Shown here one piece after another: positions 191 to 50,625 of a DNA stretch of 64,000 nt (positions are counted from its first letter, which is position 1; every line of letters begins with the position of its first letter). The position numbers and the translations under genes were made by a program. The DNA comes from an uncultured Clostridia bacterium (lineage in GTDB: Bacteria > Bacillota > Clostridia > Lachnospirales > Lachnospiraceae). The notes under the pieces are model-generated. The model ran no database searches. It had not been told where the DNA came from and saw only the letters and a list, made by a program, of their open reading frames with translations. The DNA lies in contig CAMHFW010000001.1 in assembly GCA_946184675.1 (NCBI GenBank), positions 14,822-78,821 on the forward strand, read 5' to 3'.

Positions 191-730
191 TTATTTCGTG
201 TACGGCATTCCGAATAAACGTAAAAGTTCGCGTGCTTCTTCATCTGTATGAGCTGTTGTAACGAATACAACGTCCATACCTCTTACCTTATCGACCTTAT
301 CGTACTCGATCTCAGGGAAGATCAGCTGCTCTCTCAGGCCGAGTGCATAGTTGCCTCTGCCGTCAAAAGAGTTGGGGTTCACGCCGCGGAAGTCACGTAC
401 TCGAGGAAGAGCGAGGTTTACCAGACGGTCTGTAAAATCATACATCTTGTCGCCGCGAAGGGTAACCTTGCAGCCGATGTTCATGCCTTCTCTGATCTTG
501 AAGTTCGCGATGGACTTCTTTGCCTTTGTGATGATGGGCTTCTGACCGGAGATGATCTCCATGTCCTTAACTGCAGACTCCAGAGCCTTGGAGTTGTCCC
601 TTGCTTCGCCTACGCCCATGTTGATGATGACCTTGGAGAGCTTGGGAACCTGCATAATGTTCTTGTAACCGAACTTCTTGATCATTTCCGGAACGATTTC
701 ATTATTGTATTTTTCTAATAATCTGTTCAT
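191..730 (-). CDS. rplE: 50S ribosomal protein L5 (uL5)
   Basis: ORF 191..736. [31 protein letters not shown] is a canonical uL5 N-terminus. The ATG at 730 has better spacing to the AAGGAG than the ATG at 736. Confidence 0.95.
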
Positions 731-751
731 CGTCATGTTCTCCTTCCGGTG

Positions 752-1078
752 TTAGTCAATAACCTTGCCGGTCGCCTTCGCAACACGCTTCTTGGTCTTC
801 TTGCCGTCTGCGCCAACTTCAACTACATAACCGATGCGGGAAACCTTGTCGCCATCCAGGTACATAACGTTGGATGCGTCGATGGGTCCCTCTACACTGA
901 TGATGCCGCCGGCCTGGTTGGATACGGACGGTTTTGTGTGCTTTGTGATCATATTGAGCCCCTCTACATATACGGTGCCCTTCTTGTGGTTGATCGCGAT
1001 CACCTTTCCGGACTTACCTTTGTCCTTACCGGTGATGATCTGAACCATATCGCCTTTTTTAATCTTCATTGATGACAC
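752..1078 (-). CDS. rplX: 50S ribosomal protein L24 (uL24)
   Basis: KIKKGDMVQIITGKDKGKSGKVIAI is the KOW motif of uL24. A GTG at 1078 lies 7 nt after GGAGG; the alternative ATG is at 1069. The ORF-track start at 1120 overlaps rplN and is unlikely. Confidence 0.9.
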   Translation of the reverse strand: MSSMKIKKGDMVQIITGKDKGKSGKVIAINHKKGTVYVEGLNMITKHTKPSVSNQAGGIISVEGPIDASNVMYLDGDKVSRIGYVVEVGADGKKTKKRVAKATGKVID

Positions 1079-1091
1079 GGTACTACCTCCC

Positions 1092-1460
1092 TTACAGAAC
1101 TTCAGGCGCCAGAGAAACAATCTTCATGAACTGTTTCTCACGCAGTTCTCTTGCTACAGGTCCAAAAATACGTGTGCCTCTGGGGTTGTTGTCATCCTTG
1201 ATGATAACAGCTGCATTCTCATCGAATCTGATATAGGAACCGTCCTTACGACGAGCTCCCTTAACGGTGCGGACTACTACCGCCTTTACAACATCGCCCT
1301 TCTTGACAACTCCGCCTGGTGTTGCCTCTTTAACAGTCGCAACGATGATGTCACCGATATTCGCATATCTTCTTGTGGAACCGCCCATAACACGGATGCA
1401 GAGAAGTTCTTTGGCACCGGTATTATCAGCGACGCGAAGTCTCGTTTCCTGCTGAATCAT
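1092..1460 (-). CDS. rplN: 50S ribosomal protein L14 (uL14)
   Basis: [27 protein letters not shown] is a canonical uL14 sequence, and the operon position fits. Confidence 0.97.
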
Positions 1461-1487
1461 GTTATTACCTCCTGACTCCCGGCTCGT

Positions 1488-1745
1488 TTATTTCGCTCTC
1501 TCGATAATCTCAACCAGTCTCCATCTCTTGTCCTTGGACAGCGGGCGGGTCTCCATTACCTTTACTCTATCGCCAATGTTGCACTCATTGTTCTCATCAT
1601 GAGCCTTGAGCTTGTATGTTCTGTCTACGATCTTCTTATAAAGAGGATGTCTTACACGACCTTCGATAGCTACGACGATCGTCTTATCCATCTTATTGCT
1701 GACCACTTTACCAACTCTGGTCTTTCTAAGATTTCTGTTTTCCAC
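1488..1745 (-). CDS. rpsQ: 30S ribosomal protein S17 (uS17)
   Basis: [22 protein letters not shown] is a uS17 signature; 85 aa; operon position fits. Confidence 0.95.
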
Positions 1746-1774
1746 GACTAATTCTCCTTTCCTGTCAGAATGCC

Positions 1775-1993
1775 TTACTCAGCTACGCTGCTCTTAGCGG
1801 TGATCACGGTCTGAATCCGGGCAATATTCTTGCGGACTTCTTTGATTCTGCTCGTGTTCTCCAGCTGGTTTGTCGCATTCTGGAAACGCAGGTTGAAGAG
1901 TTCCTTCTTAGCATTCACCAGTTCCTGGTTCAGCTCTTCCGTAGACTTTTCACGTAACTCTTTGATATATTCATTAGTTTTCACTGCTGTCAC
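1775..1993 (-). CDS. rpmC: 50S ribosomal protein L29 (uL29)
   Basis: 72-aa helical protein containing [27 protein letters not shown]. It overlaps the rplP stop, as is common. Confidence 0.93.
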
Positions 1994-2411
1994 CGCCTTC
2001 TAAATCTGCCTTAGACACGATTTTGCACTTTACAGGGAGCTTATGTGTTGCAAGACGAAGAGCCTCTTTTGCAACCTCTTCCGGAACACCGGCGATCTCA
2101 AAGAGCACGCGGCCGGGCTTAACTACAGCTACCCAGTACTCAACTGTACCTTTACCGGAACCCATACGGGTCTCAGCAGGCTTTGTAGTTACCGGCTTGT
2201 CAGGGAAGATCTTGATCCAGACGCGGCCGCCACGCTTGATGTAACGTGTCATGGCAACACGGGCTGCCTCGATCTGGTTGGACTTGATCCATGCCGGCTC
2301 AACTGCTACGATACCATACTCACCATAAGTGATCTTATTTCCACGCTGTGCTTTTCCGGCCATGCTGCCGCGAAACTGCTTACGACGTTTAACTCTCTTA
2401 GGCATTAACAT
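1974..2411 (-). CDS. rplP: 50S ribosomal protein L16 (uL16)
   Basis: [25 protein letters not shown] is a canonical uL16 N-terminus. Confidence 0.97.
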
Positions 2412-2413
2412 GA

Positions 2414-3076
2414 TTATCTAACGCTCCCTTCCCTTTTTGTCTTCGTCGGGAGAACCTCGCCATGGTAGATCCATGTCTTTACACCGACCTTGCCGTAGGT
2501 CGTGTCGGCCTCTGCGAAACCATAGTCGATGTCCGCTCTGAGTGTCTGAAGCGGAATAGTGCCCTCGTTGTAGGACTCTGTACGGGCAATGTCTGCGCCG
2601 CCAAGACGGCCGCTGACTGCAGTCTTGATGCCCTTGATGCCGCTTCTGGAGCGCATAGCCTTCTGCATCGCAGACTTCATAGCACGACGGAAGGATACAC
2701 GGTTCTCAAGCTGCTGAGCAATGTTCTCAGCTACGAGCTGAGCGTTGCACTCTGCATATCTTACCTCTCTGATGTCTACAAGCACCTTCTTGCCTGTAAG
2801 CTTCTTGAGGTTAGCCTTGATCTTATCTACTTCTTCGTGGTTCTGTCCGATCAGCATACCGGGCTGTCCTGCGAAGATGATAACCTTTACTCTGTCTGCT
2901 GCTCTCTCGATCTCGATCTTGGAAATGCCTGCATCATAGAGATTCTTCTTGAGGTATTTTCTGATCTTGTTGTCTTCTACGAGATTGTCAGCGAAATCGG
3001 CCTCTGCATACCATTTGGAATTCCAGTCCTTGATAATACCTACTCTGAGGCCATGAGGATTAACTTTCTGTCCCAT
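2414..3076 (-). CDS. rpsC: 30S ribosomal protein S3 (uS3)
   Basis: [24 protein letters not shown] is a canonical uS3 N-terminus; 220 aa. Confidence 0.97.
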
Positions 3077-3091
3077 TTAATTACTTCCTCC

Positions 3092-3478
3092 TTATCTCTC
3101 GTTCAGAACGATTGTGATGTGGCTCATTCTCTTCTCGATCCTGTAAGCTCTTCCCTGAGCTCTGGGCTGGATCCTCTTCATGATGGGGCCCTGTGTCGCG
3201 TAGCACTCTTCAACATAGAGCTTTTCCTTGTCCATGTTGTTGTTGTTTTCCGCGTTCGCAATCGCTGACTTCAGTAACTTATCGATAACAGATGAAGCAT
3301 ATCTCGGGCTGTAAGCTAAAATAGCCTGAGCTGTCTCAATGTCCTTGCCTCTGATCGCGTCAAGAACGAAAGCAGCCTTCTGAACGGAGATTCTAGCGTA
3401 GGAAAGCTTAGCGCTAGGGCGCGTATCCTTATTGCTGTTGCGCTCTCTTTTGATTTGTGATCTATGTCCTTTAGCCAT
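3092..3478 (-). CDS. rplV: 50S ribosomal protein L22 (uL22)
   Basis: ARISVQKAAFVLDAIRGKDIETAQAIL is uL22-like, and the gene sits between rpsS and rpsC. Confidence 0.93.
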   Translation of the reverse strand: MAKGHRSQIKRERNSNKDTRPSAKLSYARISVQKAAFVLDAIRGKDIETAQAILAYSPRYASSVIDKLLKSAIANAENNNNMDKEKLYVEECYATQGPIMKRIQPRAQGRAYRIEKRMSHITIVLNER

Positions 3479-3499
3479 GATTTAACCTCCTTCCGCTCC

Positions 3500-3781
3500 T
3501 TACATTCTTCTGGACTTCTTCTCGTCCTTGCCGTGGCCTCTGTAAGTTCTGGTTGCTACGAACTCACCGAGCTTGTGGCCAACCATGTCTTCCTGAATGT
3601 ATACAGGAACGTGCTTTCTGCCGTCATGCACCGCGATTGTCATACCTACCATCTGAGGATAGATCGTGGAGCGTCTGGACCAGGTCTTGATGACAGACTT
3701 GTCACCGGATGCATTTAAGGCTTCTACTTTCTTAAGCAGGCTTGCATCGATAAATGCGCCTTTCTTTAATGATCTTGCCAT
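3500..3781 (-). CDS. rpsS: 30S ribosomal protein S19 (uS19)
   Basis: [12 protein letters not shown]...[30 protein letters not shown] is canonical uS19. Confidence 0.97.
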
Positions 3782-3796
3782 TTGTCCTTCCCCTCC

Positions 3797-4639
3797 TTAT
3801 TTAATCACGCTGCCGTCACGTCTTCTGACGATGTACTTGTTGGACTGCTTGTTCTTCTTACGGGTCTTGTAACCGTTAGCAGGCTTGCCCCAAGGGGTCA
3901 TAGGTCCGCTGCGTCCAATCGGTGCGCGGCCTTCTCCACCACCATGAGGATGGTCATTCGGGTTCATTACGGAACCGCGGACATGAGGTCTGATGCCCAT
4001 GTGACGCTTACGTCCTGCCTTACCGATGTTAATCAGCTCGTGGTCGATATTGCCAACCTGGCCGATGGTAGCTCTGCCCTCTACGGGAACCATTCTCATC
4101 TCACCGGAGGGGAGACGAAGGGTTGCATACTTGCCTTCCTTAGCCATCAGCTGAGCAGCGTTGCCGGCTGCACGTACAAGCTGACCGCCCTTGCCGGGAT
4201 ACAGCTCGATGTTGTGTACCATGGTACCAACAGGGATCTGGGAAAGAGGGAGGCAGTTGCCGACTTTGATCTCAGCCTTGGGGCCGTTCATCAGAGTGGT
4301 GCCAACCTGCAGTCCGTTCGGTGCAAGGATGTAGGTCTTCTGACCGTCTGCATAGCAGATCAGCGCGATGTTTGCAGATCTGTTGGGATCATACTCGATC
4401 GCCTTAACAGTTGCGGGGATATCGTCTTTGTATCTCTTAAAGTCGATGATTCTGTATTTTCTCTTCTCACCGCCGCCGCGATGTCTTACAGTGATCTTAC
4501 CCTGTGCGTTGCGGCCGGCCTTGCTGCTCTTGGAAACAACAAGAGATTTCTCAGGTGTCTTCTTTGTAATCTCGGAGAAATCCGATCCAGTCATATGTCG
4601 TCTGGAAGGTGTATATGGCTTATAGGTCTTAATAGCCAT
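3797..4639 (-). CDS. rplB: 50S ribosomal protein L2 (uL2)
   Basis: [17 protein letters not shown]...[14 protein letters not shown] is canonical uL2; 280 aa. Confidence 0.97.
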
Positions 4640-47323: not shown

Positions 47324-48178
47324 ATGACGATTCAGGAAATGAAAGCCCGTAAAAAAGAACTGGGCTACTCTAATGTCTATCTGTCCAGGCTTTCCGGAGT
47401 TCCCCTCGGCACCGTACAAAAGATTTTCAGCGGCGCAACTTCTGCGCCTAGGCGCACCACCCTGCTCGCCCTGCAGCGTGTACTGGCGGAAGGAACGTCT
47501 TTTGTTTATCCCCCTGCCGGTTCACTTTCTCATCCCTCCATGGTCCGCGATCCGCATGCTGCGGAAGCCGGTGCTCTTCCGGAGCCTGCTCCTGACCGCT
47601 ATGACCGGCAGGGATCCTATACTCTGGATGATTATTATGCTCTTCCGGATGATCAGAGGGTGGAACTGATTGATGGGATCCTGTACGATATGACTTCACC
47701 AACCACCATCCACCAGCTCATCGGCGGTTATATCCATGCAAAGTTTCTGGCATATGTTTCTGAGAAGAAGGGGGCCTGCATCCCTTTCATCTCTCCCATT
47801 GATGTTCAGCTGGACCGGGATAACCGGACTATGGTCGAGCCGGATGTCGTGGTGGTCTGCAACAGGGATATGATTATCCGCCGCTGTATTTACGGAGCTC
47901 CGGACCTGGTGATCGAAGTGCTCTCCCCCTCGACCCGCAGGAAAGATATGATCATCAAGCTCAATAAATATTTAAATGCCGGTGTCCGCGAATATTGGCT
48001 GATTGACCCTGATCAGGAACAGATTACGGTTTTTGATTTTGCCCACGATGAATTCCCGATCCACTACACATTCGATGATACGGTTCCTGTCAGGATCTGG
48101 GACAGTCAGTGTCTGATTGATTTCAGGGACATTCGAGATTCCGTTGCCTTTATCTATGACAATGATAAGAAGATCTGA
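47324..48178 (+). CDS. HTH (XRE-like) domain fused to a Uma2/DUF820 PD-(D/E)xK nuclease-fold domain
   Basis: N-terminal LGYSNVYLSRLSGVPLGTVQKIFSG. The Uma2 core is ELIDGILYDM...EPDVVVV...PDLVIEVLSPSTRRKDMIIKLNKYLNAGVREYWLIDP. The ATG at 47324 follows GGAAAGGAG. Confidence 0.8.
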   Translation: MTIQEMKARKKELGYSNVYLSRLSGVPLGTVQKIFSGATSAPRRTTLLALQRVLAEGTSFVYPPAGSLSHPSMVRDPHAAEAGALPEPAPDRYDRQGSYTLDDYYALPDDQRVELIDGILYDMTSPTTIHQLIGGYIHAKFLAYVSEKKGACIPFISPIDVQLDRDNRTMVEPDVVVVCNRDMIIRRCIYGAPDLVIEVLSPSTRRKDMIIKLNKYLNAGVREYWLIDPDQEQITVFDFAHDEFPIHYTFDDTVPVRIWDSQCLIDFRDIRDSVAFIYDNDKKI

Positions 48179-48192
48179 TTCCGATCTCATAT

Positions 48193-48223
48193 AAAAAGGC
48201 TGCCCAATTGAGGCAGCCTTTTT
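48193..48223. terminator. Bidirectional terminator between the convergent Uma2 and TIR genes
   Basis: AAAAAGGCTGCC-CAATTGA-GGCAGCCTTTTT: stem at 48198..48204 with 48212..48218, and A/T runs on both sides. Confidence 0.8.
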
Positions 48224-48239
48224 CTGTTTCCGGAGCTTT

Positions 48240-49274
48240 CTATAACGAAAGCTCTTTTTTTACTCTGGCTATATTGATTCTCGCAATTTCTTCCGCTCCG
48301 CCCAGCATTTCTGCCTTTTCATAGTAATACAGTGCTTCAAAGAGATCTTTTTCCACTCCTTCTCCCAGCTCATACAGCTCTCCCAGGCCCAGGCAGCATA
48401 CCGCAGAGTCTTCCCCTTTTTTCAGCCAGGCATGCGCATTGGCAGGACTTTTTTTCACACCATACCCTGTTCGGAAACAATCAGCCAGGGCTTTCATGGC
48501 ATAAGGAATGCCCGCCTCTGCAGCATATTGAAACCAGTACACCGCTTTCTTCGGATCCTCCTTTGTTCCGGACCCGTTCTTATAAAGCCAGGCCAGATAA
48601 TAGCCGGCCATTATATGTCCGGCCTCCGCTGCCCGCAGATAGCAGAAAAAGGCTTCGTTTTCATCTCTCTCGTGGCCTTCACGGCCTGTCTGATAAAGGA
48701 CCCCTTCCCGGAAGAGTTCTGCAGGGCTCATCTCTCCCGGTCTGCTTTCCGCTGCCTTGCCTGTATCCGGTCTGCTTTCCATTGTCATATTACCTGCTGC
48801 AGTATGTTTCTCTGCAGGTTTTGGCTCTCCCGGTCCTGTCAGACTCATGTTCGGAACAGCTGCCGTTTCCGGCTTACTTGTCAGAAAACGGATCAGGTCG
48901 AGTATTTCCCGAAAGTCTTTGTTTTCTTCGCTCAGCTGATGAATAGGAACGATCTGTTTATTTCCAAGATAAAGCTCAAAATTGTCATTTAAAGTAAGCT
49001 CTCCCAGGGCAATCGGAACAATCGGTTTTCCGTAATTGATCGCCCGTTCCACTTCTCTGTCGACCCACTCCGAGTTCTGCGCATCGTCCGTCAGAACCAG
49101 TACCAGGCCTGCAGCCCCCTTTAAAGCCCGCGTGATTTCTCCCGCGTAAGTGCTCCCGGCAGGAATATTTCCCGGCGCCATCCAGGTCTGTATCCCCTTG
49201 TCCGTCAGCACCTTTCGTATCGTATTCGCACACTCAGAATTCTTCGTACTGTAACTGATAAAAACGTATCCCAT
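48240..49274 (-). CDS. TIR-domain protein fused to Sel1-like repeats
   Basis: N-terminal YVFISYSTKN...GLVLVLTDDAQNSEWVDREVERA (FISYS start and SxWxxxE motif with the putative catalytic Glu). The C-terminus has 3-4 Sel1 repeats (AEAGHIMAGYYLAWLYKNGSGTKEDPKKAVYWFQYAAEAG...). Confidence 0.8.
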   Translation of the reverse strand: MGYVFISYSTKNSECANTIRKVLTDKGIQTWMAPGNIPAGSTYAGEITRALKGAAGLVLVLTDDAQNSEWVDREVERAINYGKPIVPIALGELTLNDNFELYLGNKQIVPIHQLSEENKDFREILDLIRFLTSKPETAAVPNMSLTGPGEPKPAEKHTAAGNMTMESRPDTGKAAESRPGEMSPAELFREGVLYQTGREGHERDENEAFFCYLRAAEAGHIMAGYYLAWLYKNGSGTKEDPKKAVYWFQYAAEAGIPYAMKALADCFRTGYGVKKSPANAHAWLKKGEDSAVCCLGLGELYELGEGVEKDLFEALYYYEKAEMLGGAEEIARINIARVKKELSL

Positions 49275-49396
49275 ATGTTCCTCTCTCTGCTCTCAAAGCG
49301 CCTTCCGAACCTCTTTTACTGATTATATCATACCTGTGAATCCTCTGTGAAGATGATGAACCGCCCTTTTATTGTACGTTTTTTTGTACCCTTTCA

Positions 49397-49488: not shown

Positions 49489-50235
49489 ATGAGCCTGTAT
49501 GCAATCGGAGATCTGCATCTGCATTTTCAGTCTGTCCTGAAGGCGCCCGGCCAGCTGCATGGAAAAGTCTGGAAAAAACATGAAGAGAAATTTATGAAAA
49601 ACTGTATGAAGACCCTGTCTGCGGAGGATACTCTGGTTCTTGTCGGTGATCACAGCTGGGGGAAAAATCTGTCCGAGTGCGAACAGGATCTGCAATATAT
49701 CTGTGATCTTCCGGGCCGTAAGATCCTGACCCGCGGCAACCACGATATGTTCTGGGACTCCAAAAAGACTTCTGCCTTGAACCAGCTCTACCAGCCCCGA
49801 CTCACATTTCTGCAGGATAGTTATGAAAGTTACCAGGAGTATGCCCTGGTCGGAACCAAAGGCTTTACTTTTGAGGGGCCTTTTTATCTGGACGGACGGG
49901 GACGGATCATGGGATGGGATGAAAAAGCCGAGGAACACGCAAAGAAGCTGGTGGACCGGGAACTGCAGCGGCTTCGCAAATCCTTTGAGCTTGCAAAGGC
50001 AGACGGCTATCAGAAGTTTATCATGTTCCTCCATTACCCGCCGACGAATATTCTCGAAGAGACAAGCCCTTTTACTGATATGGCGGAAGAATTCGGGGCG
50101 GAGCAGGTGATCTATGCTCACTGTCACGGAGAAAGCCGGTTTTATGACAGTATCCACGGAGAGTACCGGGGCAGAACCTACCGGCTTGTCTCCGGAGACT
50201 TCCTTCGCTGGAAACCACAGAAGATTCTGGACTAA
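49489..50235 (+). CDS. Metallophosphoesterase (calcineurin-like)
   Basis: MSLYAIGDLHL, VLVGDHSWG, TRGNHD and FLHYPP...AHCHG are motifs I-V of the family. Confidence 0.85.
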   Translation: MSLYAIGDLHLHFQSVLKAPGQLHGKVWKKHEEKFMKNCMKTLSAEDTLVLVGDHSWGKNLSECEQDLQYICDLPGRKILTRGNHDMFWDSKKTSALNQLYQPRLTFLQDSYESYQEYALVGTKGFTFEGPFYLDGRGRIMGWDEKAEEHAKKLVDRELQRLRKSFELAKADGYQKFIMFLHYPPTNILEETSPFTDMAEEFGAEQVIYAHCHGESRFYDSIHGEYRGRTYRLVSGDFLRWKPQKILD

Positions 50236-50625
50236 AAAGCTTCCCGCACCGCTTTCTCATCCTGTTCCCGCACCGCGGGGCGGTGCGTTTCCACAACTTG
50301 CTCTTTTCCCACCGCCTTTCAAGAAGCTTCCCGCACCGCAGAGCGGTGCGTTTCCACAACTTGCTCTTTTCCCACCGCTTTTCAGAAAACTTCCCGCACC
50401 GCAGAGCGGTGCAAATATATAACTTGCTTCCTTTCCACCGCCTCTCAGGCGGTGGGTTTTCCATAACTTGTTTTTTGCACCGCTTTCTCGTCCTGTTCCC
50501 ACACCGCGGAGCGGTGCGGTTCCACAACTTAGTCTTTCCCCACCGCTTTTCAGAAAGCTTCCCGCACCGCAGAGCGGTGCAAATATATAACTACCCCTTT
50601 TCTCACCGCTTTTCAAGCGGTTGAA
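50236..50625. repeat. Tandem array of ~62-63-bp hairpin-bearing repeats (7 hairpins), with a ~231-bp higher-order duplication
   Basis: Core GCACCGC-NNN-GCGGTGC occurs at 50270..50286, 50333..50349, 50396..50412, 50502..50516 and 50564..50580. Variants occur at 50435..50455 and 50605..50621. The inter-core sequence TTTCCACAACTTGCTCTTTTCCCACCGCTTTTCAGAA is also repeated. Confidence 0.85.

Follow-up and report, generated by a model that had tools for sequence, protein, structure and literature searches.

A 64,000-nucleotide stretch from an uncultured Clostridia bacterium of the family Lachnospiraceae (GenBank assembly GCA_946184675.1, contig CAMHFW010000001.1, positions 14,822 to 78,821), referred to below as the window, carries a gene on its minus strand (48240..49274) whose product joins a TIR domain to a set of Sel1 repeats. 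The open reading frame starts with ATG and encodes 344 amino acids, and we refer to gene and protein as TIR-Sel1. The source genome is a 1.9-Mb metagenome-assembled genome (MAG) in 209 contigs and is 87% complete. An earlier note on this DNA, made from its letters and translated reading frames, had described the reading frame, its TIR hallmarks and the fusion to Sel1 repeats, all of which were confirmed by Pfam, by an AlphaFold2 model and by the motifs FISYS and SEWVDREVERA.

The two halves of the protein were assigned to well-defined families. Pfam places TIR_2 on residues 4-124 (E 1.9e-17, 64 bits against a cut-off of 28); ThsB_TIR also exceeds its cut-off (31 bits against 21.2), with TIR_2 as the better model. 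Pfam, AlphaFold2, Foldseek and a family profile delimit the TIR domain at residues 4-134 (48873..49265, minus strand), with FISYS in strand betaA and SEWVDRE in helix alphaC. Four Pfam Sel1 repeats (E 5.9e-27) lie in the solenoid at residues 180-343 (48246..48737, minus strand), and a search of this part against PDB sequences returned Sel1 proteins at 1e-36 to 1e-24. The Sel1-like repeat family is defined by tandem helix-turn-helix repeats of 36-44 residues that match Pfam Sel1, and the C-terminal half of TIR-Sel1 belongs to it by this definition. In the AlphaFold2 model, which was built on 16 homologues and has a mean predicted local distance difference test score (pLDDT) of 79, a TIR alpha/beta fold at residues 1-134 is followed by a linker with pLDDT below 50 and by nine helices at residues 184-343. 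Foldseek searches of the PDB matched the N-terminal half of the model to the TIR domains of SARM1 and AbTir (target-normalised TM-score 0.62-0.72) and the C-terminal half to LceB, LpnE and HcpC (E 1e-9 to 1e-7). The modelled N-terminal half thus has the flavodoxin-like fold of TIR NADases, and the modelled Sel1 solenoid is folded like a ligand-binding module.

Between the two lies a predicted flexible linker of 45 residues (residues 135-179, 48738..48872, minus strand), which is rich in Pro, Ala and Glu and modelled as disordered. Its length and sequence differ even among orthologues that are 91% identical, and it is mostly absent from one clade of orthologues (P0004-P0009). A scan for hydrophobic or transmembrane segments in TIR-Sel1 found none, and the N-terminus, MGYVFISYS, is the betaA strand of the TIR domain itself. 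Since the protein starts at this strand and has no hydrophobic segment, it is predicted to be cytoplasmic.

Alignments to characterised TIR enzymes place the residues expected of an active site in TIR-Sel1. In a structure-sequence search, EWVDRE aligned to DWVHKE of SARM1, and Ala39-Gly40 aligned to the Ala-Gly of the SARM1 BB-loop; the aligned SARM1 residues are Glu642 and Gly601. A profile made from 30 TIR domains of the same subtype matched Cat1 at E 3.6e-7, SARM1 at 8e-4 and AbTir at 3e-3. The S-x-W-xxx-E register is kept in the Cat1 alignment, where Glu74, the predicted catalytic glutamate (codon 49053..49055, minus strand), falls on the Glu of SDWCWDE, and Ser68, Trp70, Glu74 and Gly40 align to both SARM1 and Cat1. 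Glu74, Ser68, Val71, the FISY strand and the pattern W31-M-A-P..I-P.G..Y43 are invariant in all 16 orthologue-like TIR-Sel1 proteins, and, with small differences, the same holds for 64 TIR proteins of different species and for the 30 TIR domains. Within the BB-loop region (WMAPGNIPAGSTY, residues 31-43, 49146..49184, minus strand), W31, M32, A33, P34, I37, P38, G40 and Y43 do not vary across the 30 aligned domains, which gives the subtype its signature, WMAPxxIPxG. The near-invariance of the catalytic Glu, Ser and Trp and of the BB-loop Gly argues for selection on catalysis, and these alignments indicate that TIR-Sel1 is probably competent as an NAD+ glycohydrolase or cyclase of the SARM1/AbTir/Cat1 type. 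The earlier note had staked its reading on the catalytic Glu and the BB-loop surviving a proper alignment; both are kept, and both are invariant across the family.

The TIR head of this protein is shared by a large family whose C-terminal parts are interchangeable. Orthologue-like TIR-Sel1 proteins have 34-91% identity, and the same head occurs at 45-64% identity on other tails in 64 proteins from species-representative genomes. The tails among these 64 include LRR_5 (7 proteins), FtsK (7), Pkinase (6), MORN (5), DUF6273 (4), RCC1, TPR, LRR_8 and nSTAND1 (3 each) and Sel1 (2); FHA, S1, vWA and PRPP-synthetase domains are further partners of the same head, and transmembrane segments are present in 16 of 78 TIR proteins of the subtype. 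An exhaustive search returned 163 representative clusters at E<=1e-30, a number that rises to 3387 at E<=1e-10, with the TIR domain N-terminal in almost all. Members of the family occur in gut and rumen Clostridia, namely Lachnospiraceae, Oscillospiraceae, Acutalibacteraceae and Ruminococcus. At 7 of 79 loci, TIR genes stand in groups of two or three. JGI metagenome contigs yielded no close relative of TIR-Sel1, only matches to Sel1-only proteins.

Within the genus, a full-length TIR-Sel1 orthologue was found in none of the five congeneric species searched, one of which has the TIR domain with another tail; one congener matches the rumen Lachnospiraceae MAG RUG13313. A comparison with empty sites in genomes of the same genus was uninformative, as synteny is lost at about 70% nucleotide identity. 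The result for the five congeners suggests a patchy distribution within the genus, which we counted in favour of a role in defence, together with the modular build of a constant head and swappable sensor-like tails (LRR, MORN, RCC1, TPR, Sel1, STAND and kinase).

The genome encodes at least seven other TIR proteins, all of a distant subtype. Among its further TIR genes is a second, distant family of TIR and Sel1 fusions, with at least six paralogues on contigs C201, C130, C133, C81, C161 and C170 (L002-L004 and L006-L008). From the N-terminus, these consist of a zinc ribbon (CxxC...CxxC), a long coiled coil, a TIR domain, a helical region and up to at least six Sel1 repeats; the TIR motif is DIFISVKQ...NSxWVxNEW, with the Glu kept, and the frames run to about 500-1000 amino acids, several of them cut by contig ends. 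The shortness of the contigs suggests that the repeats break the assembly. A further contig (C127, L005) encodes a 620-residue protein with TIR, transmembrane and TPR_12 regions after a second TIR-like reading frame with a transmembrane segment, which makes a tandem pair of membrane-anchored TIR proteins. Beyond this genome, the exhaustive family search also returned giant proteins of 700-2300 amino acids (P0121-P0128, P0139 and P0146), with 4-7 tandem related TIR copies at about 25-31% identity.

TIR-Sel1 appears to be transcribed on its own. A sequence resembling a ribosome-binding site (AGAGAGGAA) lies 5 nt upstream of the ATG, and a promoter-like site, TTCACA-18-(TG)TATAAT, lies further upstream (49351..49322, minus strand); this site has an extended -10 element (the TG extension) and agrees with the consensus at 11 of 12 positions, its assignment being by consensus match only. 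Downstream, a bidirectional intrinsic terminator (about 48193..48225, both strands) is common to TIR-Sel1 and the gene that converges on it. Its hairpin, AAAAAGGCUGCC-loop-GGCAGCCUUUUU, has a folding energy of -19.3 kcal/mol on the plus strand and -20.3 kcal/mol on the minus strand (z = -5.6 and -5.0, respectively), and none of 200 shuffled sequences was as stable. A second hairpin followed by a run of T residues, on the plus strand at 48232-48255, overlaps the 3' end of the TIR-Sel1 reading frame. The promoter-like site and the strong terminator bear out the separate transcription unit proposed in the earlier note, as does Pfam for the convergent neighbour that it named: the gene at 47324..48178 (plus strand) encodes HTH_3 (E 5e-6) and Uma2 (E 2.7e-33), the latter of PD-(D/E)xK fold.

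That note had also placed the gene between a nuclease-fold gene and a repeat-rich region. Both are present; the repeat region, and the Metallophos gene that precedes it, proved unrelated to TIR-Sel1. The Metallophos gene (49489..50235) was rejected as a partner, as it is 69-73% identical in two congeners with neither a TIR gene nor any other gene of the window adjoining it. Between this gene and the Mrp operon, at 50234-50620, a unit of about 63 nt occurs in 3-4 direct copies, each with a hairpin, CCGCACCGC-AGAG-CGGTGCGG, some of which are terminator-like. The tract was rejected as CRISPR-like or TIR-linked: it consists of local, hairpin-bearing direct repeats that occur nowhere else in the genome, and the Metallophos gene lies between it and TIR-Sel1.

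Taken together, we propose that TIR-Sel1 is a cytoplasmic, self-contained sensor-effector that defends its host by depleting NAD+, and put the probability of this reading at about one half; defence is the single most likely role of the gene, at about even odds. Made from its own promoter, the protein would rest in an inactive state, either monomeric or as a small oligomer. Binding of a ligand to the Sel1 solenoid, the likeliest ligand being a protein of a phage or mobile element, would bring about self-association, in which the BB-loop (residues 34-42) of one TIR domain would complete the catalytic pocket that holds Glu74 of the adjoining one. NAD+ would then be cleaved to nicotinamide and either ADP-ribose or an isomer of cyclic ADP-ribose (cADPR). 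Since neither a signal-binding effector close to the gene nor a ThsA-type SIR2 protein anywhere in the genome was found, the outcome would likely be direct depletion of NAD+ and growth arrest (abortive infection) rather than second-messenger signalling. The sensor-effector reading of the earlier note therefore stands in part: it is plausible, with the same TIR domain found on many ligand-binding tails, and it is weakened by genomic context, where no enrichment near defence genes was seen at the family level and housekeeping surroundings prevail.

Several observations weigh against a role in defence, most of them drawn from this context. The genes within 10 kb on either side of TIR-Sel1 are of a housekeeping kind (a binding protein, Crp, Ham1, a C1 peptidase, RlmL, DUF5662, an AKR, a lipoprotein, Metallophos and the Mrp/Mnh operon), and neither an integrase, nor a prophage, nor a known defence system lies within that distance. 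When 608 neighbours of 79 loci were clustered, no conserved partner was found; the most frequent, an ABC ATPase, occurs at 10 loci in scattered positions. In a coarse test at the same 79 loci, PADLOC matches (E<=1e-10) were as rare among 124 genes at the two flanking positions on either side as among 140 control genes more than 6 kb away, and the enrichment of homologues near defence genes that had been expected was thus not found at the family level. No complete PADLOC system model fits TIR-Sel1, whose matches are confined to the TIR components of other systems. Orthologues P0004, P0005 and P0009 adjoin a sigma-54 activator and a 3HCDH gene, and P0017 and P0014 have transporters, a glycosidase and a C11 peptidase around them. 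The family was not found in phage and plasmid collections, in which only Sel1-only proteins matched. The composition of the gene makes a weak case for horizontal acquisition: its GC content (0.50) is typical of the window (0.51), and its third-position GC (0.50) is the lowest of 18 genes (0.52-0.69 in the other 17) but only slightly low, so that recent transfer is not evident. Finally, the fusions to kinase, FHA, S1 and FtsK domains would also fit ordinary cellular signalling.

Conflict-like surroundings were seen in only two of about eight independent TIR-Sel1 contexts. An orthologue from bovine rumen (P0011, 50% identity) lies directly after a type II CBASS operon (DncV-like nucleotidyltransferase, ThiF, JAB and SUa-2TM) on a conjugative element, with BrxL and AbiH upstream and TraG downstream. 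In a MAG of a goat-omasum Lachnospiraceae (L031), a TIR-Sel1 homologue with five Sel1 repeats (3300-4409, plus strand) begins 18 nt after a gene for a 1009-residue TIR-STAND protein of NB-ARC-like type (253-3282, plus strand). Two further observations concern the make-up of TIR-Sel1 loci. Bovine rumen contigs L019 and L020 carry, on an element with TraG, a compact island of AbiH, BrxL, type II CBASS, two small reading frames (one of them DUF6361), TIR-Sel1 and then unknown genes. Directly upstream of the P0004 orthologue (L022:2-2422, plus strand) lies a gene for an 806-residue protein with GTP_EFTU and its domain 2, four Sel1 repeats and TPR_27; this fusion of an EF-Tu-like GTPase to Sel1 repeats is unusual.

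It is possible, if unlikely, that TIR-Sel1 is instead an NAD-linked physiological regulator, whose TIR domain would make or consume an NAD-derived metabolite when the Sel1 repeats bind an endogenous ligand, for example in stress, dormancy or envelope functions, and for which the paralogous TIR fusions would form a signalling network. The chromosomal housekeeping contexts and the lack of defence enrichment are what this predicts, the Ser/Thr kinase, FHA, S1 and FtsK tails are typical of bacterial signal transduction, and the P0004-P0009 clade stays beside its sigma-54 activator; in addition, gut bacterial TIR proteins are reported to make cADPR variants in vivo, with no known phage link (PMC9092222). 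Such a regulator is harder to reconcile with patchy presence within a genus, with tail swapping and local clusters of TIR genes, both typical of conflict genes, or with an orthologue that a conjugative element carries within a defence island, and all bacterial cytoplasmic TIR enzymes whose role is known so far act in defence (PMC11350192). We regard it as very improbable that the protein is a host-directed or inter-bacterial effector, either a secreted TIR protein acting against animal Toll-like receptors, like TcpB/BtpA of Brucella and TcpC of E. coli, or a Sel1 host-interaction factor, like the Sel1 proteins of Legionella. The Sel1 part does resemble LpnE, LceB, HcpC and EsiB, and the organism inhabits the animal gut, but the protein lacks a signal peptide, a transmembrane segment and a secretion-associated domain, its N-terminus is the betaA strand, no secretion genes lie nearby, and the family has dozens of cytoplasmic fusion partners. 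Animal adaptor TIR domains act by homotypic TIR contacts, and a non-enzymatic scaffold of this kind, linking partners bound to the Sel1 repeats to other TIR proteins, is conceivable in a genome with at least seven of these. We give it very little weight, as a pure scaffold would have no need of the invariant catalytic Glu, Ser and Trp and BB-loop Gly, and the other TIR proteins of the genome are of a distant subtype.

The convergent HTH-Uma2 gene was considered as a partner. In a loosely linked two-gene module, TIR-Sel1 might, for example, sense and then signal or deplete NAD+, while Uma2 would act on nucleic acid or regulate the pair through its helix-turn-helix domain; we consider such a module rather improbable. 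Its appeal is that Uma2 is the sole neighbour common to the window and the nearest TIR-Sel1 orthologue clade, in which Uma2 proteins 47% identical to the core of the one in the window lie 159 nt upstream (L026), about 1.6 kb upstream (L027) or about 4.7 kb downstream (L022), so that a related Uma2 gene is within 5 kb in each case. The Uma2 gene of the window matches a PADLOC defence candidate (PDC-S03, 143 bits), and one bidirectional terminator serves it and TIR-Sel1. On the other hand, orientation and distance vary in every case, and the two genes do not form one operon in the window. Beyond the nearest clade, a Uma2 gene lies within 10 kb at only 1 of 79 wider TIR loci, and none was found near the P0011, P0017 and P0014 orthologues. 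The genome holds 6-7 Uma2 copies, including a tandem pair on the same contig about 4.3 kb past the right end of the window, so that chance proximity is expected at about 4% per locus. The three orthologue loci, being closely related to each other, count as one event.

The proposed activity of TIR-Sel1, that of a defensive NADase with its own sensor, has a precedent. The earlier note did not recognise a described defence system here, a statement that has to be revised, as one-protein defence by TIR and TPR has been shown experimentally for E. coli TIR-II (PMC11350192). In that study (Nat Commun 2024;15:7384), 32 candidate TIR systems were tried and 12 were protective; several of the protective systems are single proteins, with TIR-II, -V, -VI and -IX among the one-protein TIR systems, and mutation of the TIR active site abolished defence in 12 of 12. 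TIR-II carries a TPR domain, which can share one protein with the TIR domain, and is reported there as the most widespread of the systems. Because defence by a single TIR and TPR protein has already been demonstrated, TIR-Sel1 is best described as a variant of a known design. Compared by description only, the two are alike in having a TIR domain and repeats of the TPR class in one polypeptide with no obligate partner gene. They differ in that TIR-Sel1 has repeats of the Sel1 subtype, only four of them, after a long disordered linker, that it lacks the ATPase carried by about 30% of TIR-II systems, and that its host is an anaerobic member of the Lachnospiraceae. The novelty of TIR-Sel1 relative to the known design lies in its Sel1 tail, its minimal size, its lack of an NTPase and its host group. 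A candidate TIR-TPR protein was also encountered among solved structures: the N-terminal region of an 824-residue 'Tetratricopeptide repeat protein' (PDB 9m0n/9umd) matches the TIR family profile at E 1e-3.

Other described systems share parts of this architecture. SARM1, AbTir and Cat1, enzymes that are activated on oligomerisation, have the same TIR fold, and their FISY betaA strand, BB-loop Gly and S-x-W-xxx-E helix align with those of TIR-Sel1; identity is only about 22-30%, WMAPxxIPxG is particular to the gut-Clostridia subtype, and in place of the Sel1 repeats SARM1 has ARM-SAM and Cat1 has CARF as regulatory modules. SpbK of B. subtilis is reported to be a TIR NADase that is encoded by a single gene and set off by a phage protein (PMC12847820), and DSR2 to be a SIR2 NADase with an alpha-solenoid that binds a tail tube protein (PMC11850899). 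The sensors of Avs5 are of the Sel1/TPR type. TIR-STAND proteins with TPR sensors and DSR2 resemble TIR-Sel1 in joining an NADase head to a helical-repeat sensor for phage proteins; TIR-Sel1 differs in having no STAND NTPase, in having a TIR head where DSR2 has SIR2, and in being far smaller. Identity as a TIR-STAND, Avs or NLR-like protein was rejected, as Pfam found no P-loop domain and the protein has only 344 residues. The C-terminal half matches LpnE, LceB, HcpC and EsiB/c5321 in sequence and fold; these proteins are secreted or periplasmic and have no enzymatic head, whereas TIR-Sel1 is predicted to be cytoplasmic and is fused to a TIR domain.

Thoeris and the nucleotide-signalling systems were weighed in the same way. 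ThsB, like the proposed TIR-Sel1, is an infection-sensing TIR protein, and besides the Pfam ThsB_TIR model, which exceeds its cut-off, several PADLOC ThsB models match weakly; ThsB proteins lack a Sel1 tail. No ThsA-type SIR2_2 protein was found in the genome (87% complete), and the gene neighbours are HTH-Uma2 and Metallophos. Identity as Thoeris was rejected because ThsA is neither adjacent nor elsewhere in the genome. The PADLOC SAVED_TIR model matches TIR-Sel1 through its TIR part alone (residues 2-80). A TIR effector of CBASS, Pycsar or type III CRISPR (TIR-SAVED, TIR-STING, PycTIR or Cat1) was rejected because the protein has no SAVED, STING or CARF domain and no cyclase is encoded near the gene in the window.

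Should TIR-Sel1 prove to be an active NADase whose trigger acts through the Sel1 repeats, defence by one protein with a TIR domain and helical repeats would reach the anaerobic gut Firmicutes, and the same design would reach the Sel1 repeat class and a minimal, NTPase-free format of 344 residues, which would be convenient for structural work and for mapping of triggers. The family-level picture, with thousands of relatives, one head and interchangeable tails, may be more useful than the single gene. Discovery pipelines that start from defence islands would miss members of the TIR subtype, as it shows no enrichment there. The subtype may likewise produce some of the TIR-derived cADPR variants that gut bacteria are reported to make (PMC9092222). 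A more speculative proposal, and a doubtful one on present evidence, is that gut and rumen Clostridia keep a scattered chromosomal repertoire of NTPase-less TIR receptors, in which one NADase head (FISYS...WMAPxxIPxG...SxWVxxE) is joined to swappable Sel1, LRR, MORN, RCC1, TPR, kinase, FtsK or transmembrane tails, as a form of germline-encoded pattern recognition outside islands, possibly with a Uma2 partner in the TIR-Sel1 clade. Such a repertoire would be an organisation unlike that of island-borne, operon-encoded defence. If the subtype should instead consist of ordinary signalling proteins, this would be the first non-immune role of cytoplasmic bacterial TIR enzymes. The organisation of this TIR family outside defence islands is the more interesting lead than the single gene.

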